Shown in pieces: positions 29,643 through 60,739 of a stretch of 64,000 bases of DNA (positions are counted from its first letter, which is position 1; every line of letters begins with the position of its first letter). The notes beneath the pieces were generated by a model. The model was not told the origin of the DNA, searched no databases, and saw only the letters and a list, made by a program, of their open reading frames with translations. This DNA is from a virus, in the IMG/VR virus record IMGVR_UViG_3300030012_002034, positions 1-64,000 of that record, one strand, 5' to 3'. Both the position numbers and the translations under genes were made by a program.

Positions 29643-29667
29643 ATTAATATACTAATTTTTAGTTTAA
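29643..29667 (-). promoter_or_regulatory. Candidate late-promoter motif
   Basis: TTAAACT-N9-TATATTAAT upstream of the 1679-aa gene. Confidence 0.5.
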
Positions 29668-41687: not shown

Positions 41688-41716
41688 ATTAATATACTAA
41701 ATTTAAATGAGTTTAA
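41688..41716 (-). promoter_or_regulatory. Candidate late-promoter motif
   Basis: TTAAACT-N13-TATATTAAT just downstream of the terminator and upstream of the IHF-like/tail operon. Confidence 0.5.
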
Positions 41717-41734: not shown

Positions 41735-41769
41735 AAAAAACAAAACCCCCACTTGTGTGAGGGCTTTGT
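41735..41769 (-). terminator. Rho-independent terminator
   Basis: Minus strand ACAAAGCCCUCAC-ACAA-GUGGGGGUUUUGU (13-bp stem with G-U pairs) followed by UUUUU. Confidence 0.85.
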
Positions 41770-41808
41770 CCTTGTTAGTCACAGAACCAACAAAACTGCG
41801 ACATGTCT
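41735..41808 (-). ncRNA. Candidate 3'UTR-derived small RNA: hairpin with loop UUUUGUUGGUU plus terminator
   Basis: Stem GUCGCAG/CUGUGAC (41802-41796 / 41784-41778) encloses an 11-nt loop (41795-41785) complementary to (A)ACCAACA(AAA) motifs at several gene starts. Confidence 0.45.
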
Positions 41809-42360
41809 TTATCCAATTACTATAGCTCTTACTTTATCATAAGTAGAACCACTAGATAATGTTATTGTAATGTCTCCTGTACTACCATTTATAGTAATAT
41901 CAGTTGTAGCTTCAGCTGTCATTCTTTTCCAAGTTGTAGTTCCTGTAGTATAATAATAAACATCTATTGTAAAATCTACTTTATCTTGTACAGGAGTAAG
42001 ACCTCCGTTAGGAATAAAACAACCATCTTTTAAACCATTACAAGCAGTAAGCTCGGCTTGAGTAATAGTTATAGGTGTTCCTGATCCTGATGTTGCTAAT
42101 GAAGCCCACTCTTTAATAAATTTGTTAGTAGTGCTAGAACATATTAATGTTACAATGTTTGTAAGTGCTGTATCAATAAAAGTATTTTGAGGAACTATTG
42201 TATTAGTACCACATGCTAACGCAGAACCTGTGTATCTAGTACATTTAGCATCTACTACTTCTGAACACTGTACTGTTTCAGCACATGCCTCTGGATCTGG
42301 ACAAGGAGCTGGAGATGGTAAAAATTTATCATCACATCCGCATTTTTCACAATTTGTCAT
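41809..42360 (-). CDS. Cys-rich structural protein (fibre/appendage candidate)
   Basis: 183 aa. The N-terminal Cys motif is shared with the 630-aa neighbour, and the C-terminus is beta-rich. Confidence 0.5.
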   Translation of the reverse strand: MTNCEKCGCDDKFLPSPAPCPDPEACAETVQCSEVVDAKCTRYTGSALACGTNTIVPQNTFIDTALTNIVTLICSSTTNKFIKEWASLATSGSGTPITITQAELTACNGLKDGCFIPNGGLTPVQDKVDFTIDVYYYTTGTTTWKRMTAEATTDITINGSTGDITITLSSGSTYDKVRAIVIG

Positions 42361-42378
42361 TTTCTAATTTTTTAATTT

Positions 42379-44271
42379 TTAACAAGTTTTAGATGGTTGA
42401 ATATCTGTAGTACATGGATCTATAAAACAAGTTAATCCATCTAAACTAAATTTAAATCCACCTACTTGATCATGTCTAGATGCATCCAATCCAAATGAAT
42501 AATCTGCATAACCTCCTGCACCATCTGAATGTGTTCCAAATCCTAAACCAGGTCCTGTTGCAATTGTTGAACCATTAGTCCAAGTTGTTGGTGTTGTTCC
42601 GGTAGCTATAAAAGTTACTTTAGTAGCATTGGCTCCTGCACCAACATTACTAAAATTATCACCTGTTTGAAAATTATATATTGTATACATTTGACCAACT
42701 ACAAGAGTACCTGAAGTTTGATAAGAAGGTTCAGTACGTATTGCATTACTATGTAAAGTTCCAATTGGACCTTGATCATAATTAGGAACTGAAGCACTGG
42801 CTACAGCAAATGTTGTTATAAAGTTAGCAGCAGAAGATCCTAAAAGGGGAGCTGAATCTGAAGTATTAGTTTCTAAATTATTTAATGTTTTAAAATATAA
42901 TTTTTTATCTGCTGAAATAGATACTTCCATAAAAGCAGTCATAAGAACTGTACCTGTATCTACAGCTACTTGTCTTGTTGCTACAATATTACCTCCTCCT
43001 AATGTAACAAGATTTTCAAAGTTTGTTCCAGTATTCATGATAGTTGTAGGAACAATAGAATTATTTTCATTAAAATATGCTGTAGTTACACCACTACCAG
43101 TTATAGCACTAACTCCTCCTGTTACACCTAATGCAGTTGCAGATCTTGTTATAGTTCTATAAGTATCTACATTACTCATAGCTTCTATTCCTGAACTACC
43201 TCCATTCATTAAAGGTATAAAAACATCTCCTCTAAAGTGAACTACATTACCAATTCTTCTTGCTTGAGGTTTACCTACAGTTCCACCTTGATGATCAAAA
43301 CCAGATAAGTCTTTCCATCCAGTATCTACTATTTTAGCACTAAGTGTAACACCCATATCGCCATATGTAGCATCTTTAGTTACTGTTAAGTCAATAGTAT
43401 TAGTATCTGTTACTTTAACTTCATATGTAGCTAGAAAATTATAAGTATCACATAAAGCAATCCATATATTATTTATAGCAGATGCCATTGTAGTATTACT
43501 TACATCAGTAATCCAGCTTCCTGCATATTTTGTAATCATATTCTGACCTGATGCAGAAAATAAAGCTAAGTCAGCATCTAATATACATTTTCTAGATATT
43601 GCATCTGTAATTGTAGTATTACCACCTGTTAATGCTCTAAAAGAACAGTAACCATAAGTTGAATCATTAACTAAAGCAGTAAGAATATCAGTTAAGGTGT
43701 GAGATGTTCCTGATGTAACAGTACTACTTAAATCGCAAGCTACTGTAAAACTAGGCATAGTAAAACTAGGAGCTGGAGCATTTTCTAATGCATCAACTCT
43801 AATATCTAAACTGTTAATTTGATTTTGAAGTAAGCTTATATCTGTTATTAATGAACATACTTTTCTAGCAATTAAAGTTACATAATCAGTTAAGTTCATT
43901 GTGGTTTCTTCTCCTGTAATTAAACAAGATTCAATTGTCATAATACAACTATTAGGACAATCACCTGATGAGCTTGATGTAGAATCTGTTGTACTTACAC
44001 TTTCTAAAGCACAAATTCTTTTTATTAATAATTGAATTAATTCCTCAAACTTTGCTGGAGGACATGTAGCTAAACTAAAACAAGAAAGATCATAACTACT
44101 TACTTTTAAAGAAGTCATGATTGTACAAAGCTCAGTAGCTAATTTACTAACAGTATCAGATATAGTATCTCCTGTACATAGATTTATACATGATATATCA
44201 GGCCCAGCCCAAATAACACAGTTGGAGGACTGAGGTGCACAAGGAGAGTTATCAGCATTAATAGGTTTCAT
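42379..44271 (-). CDS. Tail fibre/spike-like protein
   Basis: 630 aa. Cys-rich N-terminus, coiled coil (LLQNQINSLDIRVDALE), DTGWKDL...ARRIGNVVHFRG fibre-tip-like motif, and a Thr/Gly-rich C-terminus. Confidence 0.65.
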   Translation of the reverse strand: MKPINADNSPCAPQSSNCVIWAGPDISCINLCTGDTISDTVSKLATELCTIMTSLKVSSYDLSCFSLATCPPAKFEELIQLLIKRICALESVSTTDSTSSSSGDCPNSCIMTIESCLITGEETTMNLTDYVTLIARKVCSLITDISLLQNQINSLDIRVDALENAPAPSFTMPSFTVACDLSSTVTSGTSHTLTDILTALVNDSTYGYCSFRALTGGNTTITDAISRKCILDADLALFSASGQNMITKYAGSWITDVSNTTMASAINNIWIALCDTYNFLATYEVKVTDTNTIDLTVTKDATYGDMGVTLSAKIVDTGWKDLSGFDHQGGTVGKPQARRIGNVVHFRGDVFIPLMNGGSSGIEAMSNVDTYRTITRSATALGVTGGVSAITGSGVTTAYFNENNSIVPTTIMNTGTNFENLVTLGGGNIVATRQVAVDTGTVLMTAFMEVSISADKKLYFKTLNNLETNTSDSAPLLGSSAANFITTFAVASASVPNYDQGPIGTLHSNAIRTEPSYQTSGTLVVGQMYTIYNFQTGDNFSNVGAGANATKVTFIATGTTPTTWTNGSTIATGPGLGFGTHSDGAGGYADYSFGLDASRHDQVGGFKFSLDGLTCFIDPCTTDIQPSKTC

Positions 44272-44283
44272 AGTCTTTATATT

Positions 44284-44297
44284 TATAATATAGTTAT
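44284..44297 (-). promoter_or_regulatory. Candidate late-promoter motif
   Basis: AACTATATTATA upstream of the 630-aa fibre gene. Confidence 0.4.
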
Positions 44298-44302
44298 AAT
44301 TC

Positions 44303-46144
44303 TCAAGAACTGCAAGTCTTAGGGGTAGAACAATTACACGTTGAACAAGTACTCTGATTACAGCCGCAACTACTAGGTACTGTAGAACATGTATAATTAG
44401 GATCTATTAATGCTTGAAGTTCAATTAATTCTTTTTTAATAGTCCATTTATCAATTTCTTCCGGACAACAACTAGATATACCATATCTTTTTTGTACTAC
44501 AGACTTATAAAGTTGTTCTCCAAAGTTACATGATATCTTTTCATATTTTTCTATTGAACATGCTGGTGTATTATATCCTGGTTTAATTTTCTTAACAGGG
44601 TATACTTGAGCAGGACATGTCCAAGGAGAATCTGCATTTGCTTGAGTACAATTTCCATGAAATAAAGGTAAAGTACCAGTATTCCATCTGATTACACAAT
44701 ACCTTTTACTTCTAGATTTAGCAGCAACAGATTCAGTAGTTTGTAAAATTCCATTACAATCTATATAAGTAAATGTAGCTGCTTCTGTTCCTTCATTATA
44801 TATGGTTGAACATCTACATGCAAAATCTTTTAAACACGTTGCACAATCAGAATATTGTGAATGAAAAGTAACTCCTACAGGATTTACAGGAACACCTGTA
44901 AAGGTAGAAACTGTAAAGCATTTTTCACAATTTTGAAGTTGAATTACCCTACCAACATAAGCTGATAAATCTGTGCTTGTATATGTAATAGGATCAGCAC
45001 CATCACATGATGTTAGTTTATAGTATGTTGTTTTACACTCTTGACATGTGTCAAAACCACCAGCTTGGATAACTACTGTTGTATCACTAGGAGGTGCTAC
45101 ATTTATTTCTTCAACCGTGTAGCATCCGCAAGGATCAGCTAACTCTACTACTTTATTTTTATACTCTGATAAATCCTGAGTAGTATATACTATTTCTTCT
45201 TCATTATCACAAGAAGTTAGTCTGTAAGCTATTGTAGGTTTGCAAGCCTCACAACTAACATAATCAAATCTAACTATAACATCAATTGGACACTCACAAT
45301 CACCAGACTGAATAGCTACAGTATAACATCCAGAATGACCTTCTATAGTAACTACATTACCTAAGTAAGCAAATAAATTCTGTGATTTACTATTTATTAC
45401 AACACCTGTTGTACATTCTGTAAGTTTATAACAAATCTCAGGACACTTACCGTCTATACAAGCCGTACTTGTAGTAATAGTCCCAGAACCATCTGAATCA
45501 AAAACTGGTTTAGTTAAAGCACAAACTTGAACTGGAGCTAATACTCCTGAACGTGCTATATTATCACAACCAACATAACTAATAGTTCCTGTTCCTGTAA
45601 CTGTATAACATTTGCATGTACAAGCACTACAAGCAGAAGCATAAGTTACAGTAGTAGTTACTCCTGAGCATTCATTTGGTGATTCTTGTACAAACCAACA
45701 ATCTGAATTATCATTGATTGTTATAAATGTATTTACATAAGCTGAAAGATCAGTAATTGTAAGAAAGGAATTACCATCACAGTTTGTTAATCTAAAACAA
45801 GGAGTTACACAAGTAGGACATATTGAATAATCAGCATCTAGAGGTTGTTTATCTTCACATGTCATCTTACCAGTATAGCCAAAACTAGTATCTTGTAAGG
45901 CATCAAATGCTAAAACTGTTGCAACATCAGCTTGTTTTGCCTCAACATAATAACACTTGTTATTTTCAAGTGGTTTAGTTGATCCATCAGTAGCTGTATA
46001 ATTAGTAGTAGAACCTTGATATAAATATACAGAATCTGGACCCCAAAAAGGATTCCAACTAGATTTATCTAGTCTTACATTAAATTGAATTGATGGATCA
46101 CAACAATCTGTTAATGTATAATATCTTATGGAGTTTGTTGACAT
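44303..46144 (-). CDS. Cys-rich tandem-repeat structural protein
   Basis: 613 aa with about 5 copies of [YF]xLTxC..DLSxY..C[YFW]xV..CxxC. Confidence 0.6.
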   Translation of the reverse strand: MSTNSIRYYTLTDCCDPSIQFNVRLDKSSWNPFWGPDSVYLYQGSTTNYTATDGSTKPLENNKCYYVEAKQADVATVLAFDALQDTSFGYTGKMTCEDKQPLDADYSICPTCVTPCFRLTNCDGNSFLTITDLSAYVNTFITINDNSDCWFVQESPNECSGVTTTVTYASACSACTCKCYTVTGTGTISYVGCDNIARSGVLAPVQVCALTKPVFDSDGSGTITTSTACIDGKCPEICYKLTECTTGVVINSKSQNLFAYLGNVVTIEGHSGCYTVAIQSGDCECPIDVIVRFDYVSCEACKPTIAYRLTSCDNEEEIVYTTQDLSEYKNKVVELADPCGCYTVEEINVAPPSDTTVVIQAGGFDTCQECKTTYYKLTSCDGADPITYTSTDLSAYVGRVIQLQNCEKCFTVSTFTGVPVNPVGVTFHSQYSDCATCLKDFACRCSTIYNEGTEAATFTYIDCNGILQTTESVAAKSRSKRYCVIRWNTGTLPLFHGNCTQANADSPWTCPAQVYPVKKIKPGYNTPACSIEKYEKISCNFGEQLYKSVVQKRYGISSCCPEEIDKWTIKKELIELQALIDPNYTCSTVPSSCGCNQSTCSTCNCSTPKTCSS

Positions 46145-46309: not shown

Positions 46310-46329
46310 AGTTTGTTGGTTTTATTTAT

Positions 46330-48900: not shown

Positions 48901-48959
48901 TTTTTAAATTGCCTCCTATTTTATTCAGAGGACTTTTTTTGTTTATAAATAAATAGATA

Positions 48960-52107: not shown

Positions 52108-52126
52108 AATGTTGGTTTAAAAAATT

Positions 52127-52167
52127 AAAAAAAAGAAAATGGGGAGCAATGTCTACTCCCCGTTTTC
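52127..52167 (-). terminator. Rho-independent terminator after MCP (possibly bidirectional)
   Basis: Minus strand GAAAACGGGGAGUA-GACAU-UGCUCCCCAUUUUC followed by U8. Confidence 0.85.
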
Positions 52168-53813: not shown

Positions 53814-55082
53814 TTAAAATCGTTTAAAAAAATTATTTTTGTTTCTAGGAATACTCTTTTTCTTTGTAGTTCTAGAAGTTGTTTTCTTTTCCGGTGTTAC
53901 TGAGGATGTTATCTTTCTTGAAGACTCAGTCTTCAACATCCTTACAGTTTTTTCATTTGCCTTATTACTTCCTTGACTTTGAATCTTACTTCTGTATCCT
54001 TGAGGATCTGCAAGTAACCAAAGTGCTTCCGCAATAAGATCATGTCTTGGTTCTACATATTGGTATTTCTCTAACAAGTGTCCCAATAAATTTGTAGGTT
54101 TACCTGACATAGAAGGGTAACTAGGTTGAACTAAACCTGTGTATAAAAGTCCTTGTGTCTTTTTATCTAGTTTTACCTCTCCTAATTTACCTACAGATAA
54201 TGTATTATAAACATCATCCATATAAGCTCTTGCTGCATCTTCTTGTTGCTTTTTCATTTGCTCTTGTTGAGCTAACTGTCTAGCAACAATTTCTTCTTGC
54301 ATTCTATCTAACTTAGGTTTAAACTGATTAGCTTTCTTTTCTAGCTTTTCAATATCTCTCCATGTATCTATCTCTTCTTGAATTTCTTCAGGAGTTCCAA
54401 AGTTAGTAGCTGTTAAATACTGTCTTGCTATTTCAGCCTGGTGTTGCTCATTAGAAGGATCTAATTGAGTAACCTCTTCAACGTGTGCAAGAGTTCTAAA
54501 TAATCCCTTCATGTCAGTACCCCCATCTGCTACATATTTTGCAGCTATCTGAAGTTCTTGAGGAAGAGAGTTAAAAAATTCTTTAGGTGTATCCTGTCTA
54601 ATTTTTTCTTCTCTTTGTTGAAAGTTAGCTTCAAACAATTCTCTAAAATCTTTTGCTGTATAGTCCTCTATAGGTTTATCATCATCAAAAGGCATTAAAG
54701 AACCTTCTTCAATCATCTTATTAGCTAAGTCTGCAAGACCACTTTTATCCAGTCTACGTCTTCCTTTCCCTTCAGCATCTTCTTCCTGACTAATTAAATC
54801 ATCTAGTTCAGCAATTGCTTCTTCTGTCTGTTCTGCTATTACTTCATCTGAAACAGGTTTTTCTTCTGTTTCAGTTTCTGTTTTTGCAGGCTTGTCAATG
54901 AACTCAGTGTCAAACGGCTTTTCAGTCGCTAAGACATTTGTTGGTTTTTCAGTTTCTTCTTCTTTTGGTAGCATTACATTGCTTGCATCCGGGCTTGCAC
55001 CAAATATACTATCAATATCTACATCTACCTGACCTACCGTTGTAGTATCTTGTGTTTCCACATTAGTGTTTTCTTCACTCAT
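53814..55082 (-). CDS. Scaffold-like acidic capsid assembly protein
   Basis: Acidic N-terminus, coiled coil and basic C-terminus, between portal and MCP. The true start is probably ATG 55082 (MSEENT), because the track's TTG start at 55121 lies inside the promoter motif. Confidence 0.7.
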   Translation of the reverse strand: MSEENTNVETQDTTTVGQVDVDIDSIFGASPDASNVMLPKEEETEKPTNVLATEKPFDTEFIDKPAKTETETEEKPVSDEVIAEQTEEAIAELDDLISQEEDAEGKGRRRLDKSGLADLANKMIEEGSLMPFDDDKPIEDYTAKDFRELFEANFQQREEKIRQDTPKEFFNSLPQELQIAAKYVADGGTDMKGLFRTLAHVEEVTQLDPSNEQHQAEIARQYLTATNFGTPEEIQEEIDTWRDIEKLEKKANQFKPKLDRMQEEIVARQLAQQEQMKKQQEDAARAYMDDVYNTLSVGKLGEVKLDKKTQGLLYTGLVQPSYPSMSGKPTNLLGHLLEKYQYVEPRHDLIAEALWLLADPQGYRSKIQSQGSNKANEKTVRMLKTESSRKITSSVTPEKKTTSRTTKKKSIPRNKNNFFKRF

Positions 55083-55109
55083 TTTTGTTGGTTTTAAATT
55101 ACTGTTACT

Positions 55110-55125
55110 ATTAATATACAAATTA
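55110..55125 (-). promoter_or_regulatory. Candidate phage late-promoter motif TATATTA
   Basis: AATTTGTATATTAAT upstream of the scaffold/MCP operon. The same core recurs in five other gaps. Confidence 0.5.
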
Positions 55126-55182: not shown

Positions 55183-55455
55183 CTATTTTATTTTTTTATA
55201 TAACTTTTCAAGCTCTTTTATATAAAAATTTCTTTCTTCTGATCTTACTAAAGCTATTTCTTTAATAAAGTTTTCTCTCTCTAAATGACATTGTTTTAAA
55301 AATTGTTCTCTTTCTTTATGCCATGTTTCACGTTCTCTTGTTGATCTATCAGATATCTCTTCAATTTTTCTAAGCAGCCACCTCTCTCTTGTAATAGCAT
55401 ATACTACCCAAACACCAAGAACTCCGTATTGTGTAAGTATATCAAAGAATTCCAT
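55183..55455 (-). CDS. Holin-like protein (BhlA/UviB-like)
   Basis: 90 aa, ILTQYGVLGVWVVYAI single hydrophobic helix followed by a charged coiled coil. Confidence 0.45.
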   Translation of the reverse strand: MEFFDILTQYGVLGVWVVYAITRERWLLRKIEEISDRSTRERETWHKEREQFLKQCHLERENFIKEIALVRSEERNFYIKELEKLYKKIK

Positions 55456-58205
55456 TATTTCTCTTTATCTTTTTTAGATTTAGGTTCAGATTTATCAAAT
55501 TGATTTTTATTTTCTCTAGCAATTTGTAATTGAGTTTGTGCTACATCTCTTTGAACTTGTAGTTTTTCTCTTTCAATAGCATTTTTCTGGTTAGCTTGCA
55601 TTTGCCTGTTAGATTCTTTTTGTCTAGCCATTTGAGTTTGAGTTTGATATTGTTCTGTTTTACGTATATCATCCATAGCATCTCTATAGTCACTCATTTG
55701 ATTTTGATTTATATCAGACATAGATCCATAACCCGCAGCTTTTATCTCAGCAATAAGAATATCTTTTTGTCTATCTTTCTCATCTCTACCTTCTTCATAT
55801 TCACGTTTAAGTCTTTCTTCTTCTGCTTTAGCTTGAATTTGTTGCTGTTGCATTTCTTGCTGCTGCTGTTGTTCTTGCTGCTGTTGTTGTCGTTGCTTTT
55901 CTTCAGAAGCTTTCATTACACTATTAAGATCAGCAATAGAATCTGATTGAACAATTTTACCAAGGTCATAAATACTAGCGCCAGTAGTATTGTTAGTCAT
56001 TGCCATTTGCTTAAGTTGCTCAAGCACTGCTCGATGATTAGCATTAGTAGTTGAAAAGATATTTAAATCTCTCATTAACAAATCAGTACCATTTATTTCA
56101 AAATTAACTTTTTCAGCAGCTGTTGTTATATAAGTCAATCTAGCAGATGGTTTAGTTGAATGATAGTACTGAGCTAAATCAGTTCTCATTTGATGAACTC
56201 TTGGCATTAAGTAATCACAATGCTGCATAAAATAAGTTTCTGTTTGAGCATATGATGCACTTACAGCTTGTTCTACTCCTGTTGCTGTAGTTTGTGCTAT
56301 TTGCTGTCCCATTCTTTGAGGGTTAACTCCTACAACATCATAAGCTTGTTGTTTAAAGTGATTACCTAATTGAATTCTAGACATAAGCCTATTAGTCTGA
56401 GATAGATCTAATTTTTGGAAATGCTGAAAGTTTAATGCATTTTCTGTATTTGTAATAGAAGTATCTAAAGGTAACATTTGGAAATCTTTCATAGCCACAT
56501 ACGCCTTAGCTAAATTACCTTTACCCCAATCTTCTCCTAATGAATGCCTAGGTAAAGTATTCTGATCTAACATTATTATAGTTCCTAACTCATCAACAAG
56601 TATATCTGCTATTTGATTATTAACCATATTATATCCTATCTGATATGGTTTCATCATATCTACTAATGAAGTAGATCTAGTATTTCTATCTGAGAATACA
56701 GATCCTTCTACAGGAAGCTTGCATCCATACAAACTAGAATCTCCTTTAAATTGAAACTTAAGAGGACCTATATTATTTTTATCAATACCTAAATAAATAG
56801 GATCTAGTCCTTCAGGGTTATTCATGCCCCAATAACTAGGAATGTTTGGACCAATTTTAACACCGCCCCATACTTCATTAATCCATATCCAATCTATATG
56901 TTCTCCAAATACTAAATTATCTTTAGATTTATTTTTAAATAATCTAGTATCATATTGAGGTTTATCTGTAACTTTATATGCTTCAGTAATTATTTCATTT
57001 ACTACTTCACCATTTTCTTTTATTTTAGTGAGATGTCCTACTTTTCTTTGAGACTTCCAGTATACTGTACAAACTCTAAGCAGGTCATTAGTACCATCTA
57101 CATAATATTCTTCACCTTGTAATAATAATTTTTCTACAATATCATCACCATACATTGCCTGTGAAGAAGCCAATGATCTCCAAGCTAAAGATGGAGGATT
57201 GGCGTTTGCTTCATATGATTTAGTTGCATCATAGTATGTACCATCATTTTGATAACCTGTCATATTATATCCTACTGCTTTCATAGGATACACAGCTTCT
57301 AGTGCTTCTAATTGTTTTTCTGACATAAGATAACCATACTTATCAATTACATCAGCGCCTGTCATCATATCAATTTTACCTACCCAGTTACCTTGAGATA
57401 TATATCTAACATCAGGAGACTTGTGATAAAAAGTAATTAAAGGATTCCATAGTTCTACTTCATAATCATCCTCCATCATTTTCATATGCCAGAATTCTCT
57501 ATCTGTGATAAGCATATCACGGAAAGCTCTTTCTTCTAATTCATCTAGTTTAAATCTTTCTACATCAACCTTATGCTGATGAGAAGCCCATTGCTCTACC
57601 ATAGATCTATAATCTTTTTTAAAGAAAGATTCAATTTCTGGTAATTGCTTCAAAGCATCTGGAGCTAGTTGTTGTTGAGCTTCTTCAGATTCAGGGTCTA
57701 AACCTTGTTCTAATAGTGCAGTACCTATTTTTACTTGAGCATCTTGAAATAAAACTTCTTCAACAGCTTGTCTTTTTTGCTCAAGCATTTCATTATAAGA
57801 ACCTTCATCAACTGCTCTATAAGTAAGTTTAGTTGCTCTTTTAGCAAATTCTGCTACAAGTACATTAACCACATTAGGAATAATAGGATAAAACTTTAGT
57901 TCTAATGCTGTAACATCTTCTTTAGTAAGAATATCAATTATTTCAGCATACTCATTATCTTCCTCAACAATATAATCTGTTTTGTCTATAATACCTTTTG
58001 CAAGTTTATAATTTTTAGAAAGCCTTCTAGCATTTCTTTTAATTTGCTTTAGACCATTCCACTCTAGCCAGTCTATATTCCATGCTGCCCACTCACCATC
58101 TTTATCTTTTGGAGATAAAAACTGTAAAGGTTGTGTTATATTTCCTATTCTATTATGTTCTGCTTTAGCTCCTTTTTTGAGCTGCATTGCGTTGAGGACC
58201 TGCAT
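55455..58205 (-). CDS. Portal protein
   Basis: 916 aa directly after terminase, with YPIIPNVVNVL, WINEVWGG, SLVDMMKPYQ, GVNPQRMGQ and a Gln-rich coiled-coil C-terminus. Confidence 0.9.
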   Translation of the reverse strand: MQVLNAMQLKKGAKAEHNRIGNITQPLQFLSPKDKDGEWAAWNIDWLEWNGLKQIKRNARRLSKNYKLAKGIIDKTDYIVEEDNEYAEIIDILTKEDVTALELKFYPIIPNVVNVLVAEFAKRATKLTYRAVDEGSYNEMLEQKRQAVEEVLFQDAQVKIGTALLEQGLDPESEEAQQQLAPDALKQLPEIESFFKKDYRSMVEQWASHQHKVDVERFKLDELEERAFRDMLITDREFWHMKMMEDDYEVELWNPLITFYHKSPDVRYISQGNWVGKIDMMTGADVIDKYGYLMSEKQLEALEAVYPMKAVGYNMTGYQNDGTYYDATKSYEANANPPSLAWRSLASSQAMYGDDIVEKLLLQGEEYYVDGTNDLLRVCTVYWKSQRKVGHLTKIKENGEVVNEIITEAYKVTDKPQYDTRLFKNKSKDNLVFGEHIDWIWINEVWGGVKIGPNIPSYWGMNNPEGLDPIYLGIDKNNIGPLKFQFKGDSSLYGCKLPVEGSVFSDRNTRSTSLVDMMKPYQIGYNMVNNQIADILVDELGTIIMLDQNTLPRHSLGEDWGKGNLAKAYVAMKDFQMLPLDTSITNTENALNFQHFQKLDLSQTNRLMSRIQLGNHFKQQAYDVVGVNPQRMGQQIAQTTATGVEQAVSASYAQTETYFMQHCDYLMPRVHQMRTDLAQYYHSTKPSARLTYITTAAEKVNFEINGTDLLMRDLNIFSTTNANHRAVLEQLKQMAMTNNTTGASIYDLGKIVQSDSIADLNSVMKASEEKQRQQQQQEQQQQQEMQQQQIQAKAEEERLKREYEEGRDEKDRQKDILIAEIKAAGYGSMSDINQNQMSDYRDAMDDIRKTEQYQTQTQMARQKESNRQMQANQKNAIEREKLQVQRDVAQTQLQIARENKNQFDKSEPKSKKDKEK

Positions 58206-60411: not shown

Positions 60412-60739
60412 AATGTTGTTGGTCCCAAAATTTCTTTAGTAACCTAGAACCACATTCTGTATTTTCTATTTCTCCAAGCAATGATCCAAATATTTTATTT
60501 TCTTTAAGAAGCCTTCTATTTTCTTTTTCTGTTAAATATAGTTCATATTGTATATCTCCAGCATCTTTTCTAATTATTTCAATCTCTTCTTCTAAAAGCT
60601 TATAATCTTTTAAAGATACTGTATTACTTTTTGTTTTTACAGGTTCTTTATTTATTATAGAAATTATAAAGAATAAAATAATAGATACTATAATTCCAAT
60701 AAGAAGTAATACTATTCTTAACTTTATTTGGTTATTCAT
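60404..60739 (-). CDS. Membrane-anchored coiled-coil protein
   Basis: N-terminal transmembrane segment (IVLLLIGIIVSIILFFIISII) followed by a coiled coil. Confidence 0.55.
   Translation of the reverse strand: MNNQIKLRIVLLLIGIIVSIILFFIISIINKEPVKTKSNTVSLKDYKLLEEEIEIIRKDAGDIQYELYLTEKENRRLLKENKIFGSLLGEIENTECGSRLLKKFWDQQHYE

Follow-up and report, generated by a model that had tools for sequence, protein, structure and literature searches.

A conserved hairpin at the 3' end of a late operon in crAss-like phages is a candidate antisense regulator of head assembly

The DNA studied here, which we call the window, is a stretch of 64,000 nucleotides corresponding to bases 1-64000 of a 107,381-bp virus record. 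Its G+C content is 31%. The minus strand carries the late genes, among them terL, a 422-aa gene at the scaffold position, the capsid (MCP) gene, a 335-aa gene, and tail genes with crAss ring protein 2. A 916-aa ORF that follows terL (55455-58205) is taken, from its position, to be a putative portal gene. The majority of the leaders are A-rich and carry no Shine-Dalgarno sequence; the 526-aa gene is one of the few late genes whose ATG is preceded by a clear GGAGG box (48901-48925, minus strand). No tRNA or tmRNA genes were found in the window, and the phage shows no sign of lysogeny there. A nucleotide search against cultured phages returned no match, and the nearest cultured phages, by capsid protein, are only 22-29% identical, so that no laboratory system or published RNA-seq data set is applicable. 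From the positions of terminators, we predict three late transcription units: one running from the scaffold gene to the MCP gene, one from the 335-aa gene to 47.3 kb, and one ending at the hairpin described below. On the same grounds, a 52-aa Cys-rich gene would lie in this third unit together with the hairpin.

The end of the third unit is occupied by a small hairpin and a terminator, which follow the stop codon of a late gene and precede the start of the next operon. The features, from the upstream gene to the next operon, are as follows.

41809-42360, minus strand: 183-aa Cys-rich late gene, variable among relatives, whose 3'UTR bears the hairpin
41811-41809, minus strand: stop codon of the 183-aa gene; the stem begins 7 nt after it
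41778-41802, minus strand: the whole hairpin, a 7-bp stem with an 11-nt loop
41796-41802, minus strand: 5' arm of the hairpin, 7 nt, making seven pairs of which one is G-U
41785-41795, minus strand: 11-nt loop, the candidate seed, with its GUUGG core at 41787-41791; unpaired in both the MFE and the centroid structure
41778-41784, minus strand: 3' arm of the hairpin, from the RNAfold structure and from pairing in relatives
41735-41773, minus strand: intrinsic terminator with a 17-pair stem, a 4-nt loop and a U run, from RNAfold and a terminator scan
41690-41700, minus strand: promoter-like box starting the next operon (178-aa gene, ring protein 2), kept in 80 of 80 loci

The 7-bp stem and 11-nt loop that the initial annotation had placed between the stop codon of the 183-aa gene and its terminator are borne out by the coordinates and by RNAfold, and the 13-bp terminator described there is the core of a stem that RNAfold lengthens to 17 pairs. 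When the 91 nt were folded, both the hairpin and the terminator formed and the loop—eight U and three G—stayed open, with a minimum free energy of -33.7 kcal/mol (z = -4.45; 0 of 200 shuffles fold as well). The terminator is the strongest that the terminator scan finds between 41 and 56 kb. Only this second hairpin (41773-41736) has the G+C-rich stem-loop, the U run and the position at an operon end that define an intrinsic terminator, and the loop-bearing hairpin does not itself qualify as one. An Rfam scan of the whole window yielded no family that reaches its gathering score, and a scan for the sigma-70 consensus showed no enrichment and no promoter for the hairpin.

Two features of the surrounding DNA are of interest in their own right. 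The promoter-like box, a T run followed by GTATATTA, is present on the minus strand at 41690-41700, 55112-55122 and 29645-29655; the first two copies precede the 178-aa gene and the scaffold gene, respectively, by 15-40 nt. Among relatives, it is additionally found upstream of the 630-aa gene, and in several of them it stands just 2 nt from the ATG, a spacing that points to late mRNAs with a very short leader or none. The box does not match the usual Bacteroidota -7/-33 promoter consensus. On the other side of the hairpin, the 183-, 630- and 613-aa genes (41809-46144) are Cys-rich and, in relatives, either hypervariable (29-50% identity) or replaced, and the genes flanking this block are 50-98% identical among relatives. 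The block looks like a swappable receptor-binding module, the end of which coincides with the conserved hairpin.

Taking the downstream 178-aa protein as an anchor, we confirmed 185 related loci and fetched the best 80 of them. The hairpin is present in all 77 of these that have an intact region, in each case with a variable gene before it and with the terminator, the promoter-like box and the 178-aa gene after it. Among the 57 distinct sequences, the GUUGG core of the loop is invariant, and every one of the 399 stem cells pairs (399/399), with four of the seven pairs varying. One of these pairs is seen as U-A, U-G and C-G, and the other varying pairs alternate between Watson-Crick and G-U. 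Since a G-U pair corresponds to a C-A mismatch on the opposite strand, the constraint acts on the RNA of the gene strand. A column-shuffle control of this main-family stem gave 8/500, a weak control in that nearly every combination of the observed letters can pair.

About 25 more distant phages, with MCPs 75-79% identical, were also found to bear the hairpin by means of a covariance model and a pattern scan. These lineages have the same loop on at least seven stems that are unrelated to one another in sequence and that nevertheless pair, and a terminator follows the hairpin in every lineage, again with unrelated sequences. In the distant folds a 12-nt loop stays open, and in four lineages the fold of hairpin plus terminator is much more stable than those of shuffled sequences. 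Upstream ORFs have lengths of 81 to 988 aa here, and each ends with a stop codon 6-35 nt before the loop core. In the distant L148 (1509-1575) and L149 (1512-1575), the gene downstream is a 390-450-aa ORF in place of the 178-aa gene. With both neighbours changed in these lineages, the module has kept its place at the operon boundary regardless. In the genome of the window itself, the covariance model detects one copy, and the four whole records scanned (this one and three distant ones) each hold one hairpin. The module thus consists of the loop, a stem of any sequence and a terminator, and it follows a late gene directly; its candidate seed is more conserved than the rest of the RNA, with an invariant core set against four varying pairs of seven in the main family and seven unrelated stems in the distant ones.

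We also considered whether the hairpin might belong to an independent sRNA gene, and rejected this: the promoter-like box seen near the hairpin in some distant types falls within the end of the upstream ORF, and a stop codon 6-35 nt from the loop core leaves no room for a promoter of the hairpin's own. A 17-nt pattern scan of bacterial genomes gave mostly chance matches, only one of which had the full hairpin.

The loop is complementary to sequences in front of several late genes. The initial annotation had listed exact complements at four genes, all of which are found where it placed them, and a longer pairing near the 82-aa gene, which we could find by inspection and which needs bases of the hairpin stem.

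55083-55093, minus strand: leader tag of the scaffold gene, complementary to the loop over 11 of 11 nt; abuts the ATG at 55082; kept before the scaffold gene in 53 related loci
52110-52117, minus strand: leader tag of the 335-aa gene, 8-nt match, between the capsid-gene terminator and the ATG
46312-46321, minus strand: leader tag of the 52-aa Cys-rich gene, 10-nt match, kept in most relatives
60416-60423, minus strand: tag upstream of terL, 8-nt match, inside the upstream gene; among relatives, present only in L003-L005
63986-64000, minus strand: possible 15-nt pairing upstream of the 82-aa gene, by inspection, using bases of the hairpin stem

The tag's 7-mer has 11 gene-strand copies in the entire 107-kb genome, and 5 of them sit 1-9 nt upstream of real start codons. 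The duplexes that the loop can form have energies of -12.4 kcal/mol at the scaffold gene, -11.4 at the 52-aa gene, -11.0 at terL and -9.7 at the 335-aa gene; the next-best duplex among about 110 start regions reaches -7.2 kcal/mol. Of the 165 orders in which the letters of the loop can be arranged, only those that keep the GUUGG core equal the energies of the real loop, and base composition is therefore no explanation for the match. The complementarity between loop and leaders is not a product of chance.

A wider view of the tag came from 59 related IMG/VR loci fetched with the 335-aa protein as the anchor, in which the 335-aa proteins are 51-97% and the MCPs 75-99% identical. The tag has the form of an A run, then CCAAC, then one or more A, and it stands 2-25 nt upstream of the scaffold and 335-aa ATGs in nearly all of these loci. 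It is also found upstream of the 52-aa gene in most relatives, where it sometimes carries a C-to-U change that would still pair through a G-U wobble. In 950 kb of relatives, 149 of the 396 gene-strand copies of ACCAAC lie at most 22 nt upstream of an ORF start, and these start-proximal copies belong mainly to the 335-aa gene (66), the scaffold gene (53) and the 52-aa gene (21), with 7 at terL. When the CCAAC core was counted in the last 32 nt before each ATG, the 86 distinct leaders of the three target genes yielded 87 copies, and 112 distinct leaders from seven other late genes, among them the MCP and portal-position genes, yielded none. All target copies are in the sense orientation and inside leaders.

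This distribution refines the list of five targets proposed at the outset: the tags of the scaffold, 335-aa and 52-aa genes are conserved, the terL tag is confined to the nearest relatives, and the candidate site at the 82-aa gene is probably restricted to the small clade of the window itself.

In the window, a terminator (52133-52161, minus strand) comes immediately after the capsid gene and is followed by the tag and the ATG of the 335-aa gene; expression of this gene therefore has to proceed by read-through or from an unrecognised promoter. Placed after the MCP terminator and before the ATG, and with no promoter box near, the tag is an element of the mRNA leader and not a promoter. The 335-aa protein itself belongs to no Pfam or PHROG family and has no sequence match in the PDB; its AlphaFold model is confident for residues 184-335 only and gives no significant fold match. 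In some relatives, the tag is present in two or three tandem copies. L142, L143 and L144 (from the records of L106, L085 and L113) have such tandem tags, 3-8 nt apart, in both the scaffold and the 335-aa leaders; repeated tags could bind several RNAs or raise the on-rate.

A joint change of loop and tag is seen in the deepest MCP clade, which we refer to as clade B (four records, 100/100 support). Here the loop core reads AUUGG, with G replaced by A, and in all four records the tag is CCAAU in the scaffold leader and in both of its copies before the 335-aa gene, with no CCAAC at all; the 52-aa leader, seen in the complete genome G014, is likewise CCAAU. In the clades with G in the loop, the corresponding tag position holds C and U, in keeping with G-C and G-U pairing, and its non-C letters are U in 17 copies against A in 5 and G in 1, despite the A-richness of the leaders. 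The concerted change in clade B is one evolutionary event. There are also exceptions. A single record, G012, which we call type D and which is sister to a G-loop clade, has acquired an A loop independently and has leaders that keep C, leaving a 7-bp match, so that the two G-to-A loop changes comprise one compensated (clade B) and one uncompensated (G012). In the phages that we call type A, the hairpin is kept and the scaffold and 335-aa leaders carry degenerate tags only. Finally, a one-base loop variant beside the core, seen in L106, L112 and L113, is not compensated in the leaders, though tandem tags are present.

Based on these observations, we propose, with a probability of roughly 60%, that the hairpin and its terminator together constitute a conserved antisense RNA module, located where a late tail-fibre-like operon ends; comparison of genomes thus makes the element a strong candidate for a phage-encoded antisense regulator of head assembly. 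The idea of an antisense loop, put forward from the sequence of the window, gains from the conservation of the loop through stem turnover, from the tag at three genes and from the joint change in clade B, and it loses terL as a target beyond the closest relatives.

Other readings of the same data have to be weighed against this one. The hairpin could be an element for protein binding, processing or 3'-end stability, such as an antitermination site for the adjacent terminator or the operator of an RNA-binding protein of the phage, with the complementarity to the tag being functionless. Hairpins that proteins recognise typically also have loops better conserved than their stems, and the constant position beside a terminator and near a stop codon would suit such a role, as would the type A phages, where the hairpin persists although two of the three genes lack a clear tag, and type D, which keeps it with a mismatched tag. 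We nevertheless regard this reading as unlikely, because it leaves unexplained both the exact complement at the same three genes, absent from the 112 other leaders, and the joint change of loop and tag in clade B. That joint change would be accounted for if loop and tags were instead a double-stranded DNA site for a phage regulator, placed in one orientation at the three starts and inverted at the hairpin, since an altered specificity of the protein would move all sites, the inverted one included. A DNA site, however, gives no reason for the inverted copy to be framed always by a stem that is kept through compensatory changes and through G-U changes that pair on the gene strand only, or for the target copies to be all sense and inside leaders; it also fits poorly with the 335-aa tag, which lies between a terminator and an ATG with no promoter box near. 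The letters themselves follow wobble pairing, a G loop going with C and U tags and the A loop of clade B with U only, and we consider a DNA site less probable again than a protein-bound hairpin.

The least probable of the three, in our judgement, is that the tag is primarily a translation or stability signal for the host ribosome, for protein S1 or for a host RNA, and that the hairpin mimics or competes with it, or resembles it only secondarily. The A/C-rich leaders without Shine-Dalgarno sequences are like those of Bacteroidota-type initiation, tandem tags resemble enhancer repeats, and a related 118-kb contig was binned with a Chitinophagaceae genome, all of which would agree with a host signal. 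Yet such a signal would be expected at all highly expressed late genes and not at three alone, and it has no known host partner; we know of no complement of the leader tag in the 3' tail of Bacteroidota 16S rRNA. Pairing between two RNAs is the sole reading that accounts together for the turnover of the stem, the strand-specific wobble, a tag limited to the leaders of three genes, and the joint change in clade B.

If the antisense reading is right, transcription of the operon would yield an RNA whose 3' end consists of a stable stem presenting the U/G-rich loop, followed by the terminator hairpin, and this RNA would act either as the 3'UTR of the mRNA or after processing to a fragment of about 70 nt. 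Over 8-11 nt, the loop would pair with the A/C-rich tag that the scaffold, 335-aa and 52-aa genes carry in their short leaders, and the pairing would lower initiation and so tune the three proteins relative to the capsid protein. Because the tag falls in the region bound by the 30S subunit and the leaders have no Shine-Dalgarno sequence, the pairing most probably represses initiation; alternatively, it may shield the 5' end of the mRNA or guide its cleavage. We infer that the RNA accumulates, that it pairs with the leaders in the cell, and that its effect is to repress the targets and not to stabilise or activate them. The MCP gene, whose leader has no tag, is situated between two targets, which fits a role in setting the ratios of head-module proteins. 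In its fullest form, for which we see the odds as about even, our proposal is that virulent crAss-like phages of aquatic Bacteroidota would possess a chaperone-independent regulon, in which a 3'UTR hairpin RNA of about 70 nt acts on leader tags (two or three in tandem in some phages) to set the output of the scaffold and two virion genes against that of the capsid.

Base-pairing sRNAs derived from 3'UTRs are well known in enterobacteria, where CpxQ, SroC, DapZ and MicL are of this type. The hairpin resembles them in its position right after a stop codon, in sharing the intrinsic terminator of the mRNA without a promoter of its own, and in having a short conserved seed complementary to the initiation regions of several mRNAs; it thus combines the 3' end of a coding transcript and its terminator with a conserved seed and conserved complementarity to targets, which are among the features by which a 3'UTR-derived sRNA is recognised. 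It differs in being encoded by a virulent crAss-like phage and in being apparently aimed at the phage's own virion genes, in exposing the seed within a hairpin loop where those RNAs use a single-stranded 5' stretch, and in that the probable hosts here lack Hfq; the Rfam scan also revealed no relation to them in sequence. In function, the closest analogue is the scaffolding protein of phage P22, which is autoregulated post-transcriptionally with free scaffolding protein as the effector. There, as we suggest here, synthesis of scaffold is tuned after transcription and apart from the adjacent capsid gene, but the candidate effector in our case is an RNA and not a protein.

The known regulatory RNAs of phages are mostly cis-antisense RNAs of temperate phages or sRNAs directed at host genes. 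The c4 antisense RNA of the temperate phages P1 and P7 controls an antirepressor (Citron and Schuster 1990, as cited in PMC12197685; Rfam C4). Like c4, our candidate would be a trans-acting RNA encoded by the phage, carried on or cut from a phage transcript, with a loop that pairs at phage ribosome-binding regions, and the predicted location of the 52-aa target in the same transcription unit as the hairpin, from terminator positions, recalls the c4 layout. The two differ in that one loop and one motif are involved here versus two in c4, in that the targets here are head-module genes, and in that the window has no match to the Rfam C4 model. The PreS (LPR1) sRNA of lambda, in turn, base-pairs with host genes such as dnaN during lytic growth in an Hfq-based manner (bioRxiv 10.1101/2024.10.31.621285); our candidate would likewise be a phage-encoded base-pairing RNA, unlike PreS in that it appears to be aimed at phage genes and not at host genes.

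In a search of the full-text literature and a 2025 review of phage sRNAs, we found no description of the element and no trans-acting sRNA directed against phage capsid or scaffold genes, in agreement with the initial annotation, which knew of no such account for crAss-like phages; capsid genes are unmentioned in the review PMC12197685. Were the proposal true, the RNA would be the first known trans-acting sRNA that controls the morphogenesis genes of a lytic phage, kept across hundreds of genomes, and phage assembly would gain a further level of control, by an RNA that tunes the scaffold and other head-module proteins. It would do so in crAss-like phages, a group that is among the most abundant and the hardest to work with, and in hosts with neither Hfq nor Shine-Dalgarno-based initiation.

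Two minor points concern the phage family as a whole. The contig binned with Chitinophagaceae (L275; 117,852 bp) is a full-length member of the family that bears the hairpin, and its bin is a freshwater metagenome-assembled genome; the binning is a weak hint at a Bacteroidota host, and the freshwater origin indicates that the family is not exclusively marine. Being small, easily recognised and present once per genome, the hairpin is also a handy marker for this phage family.
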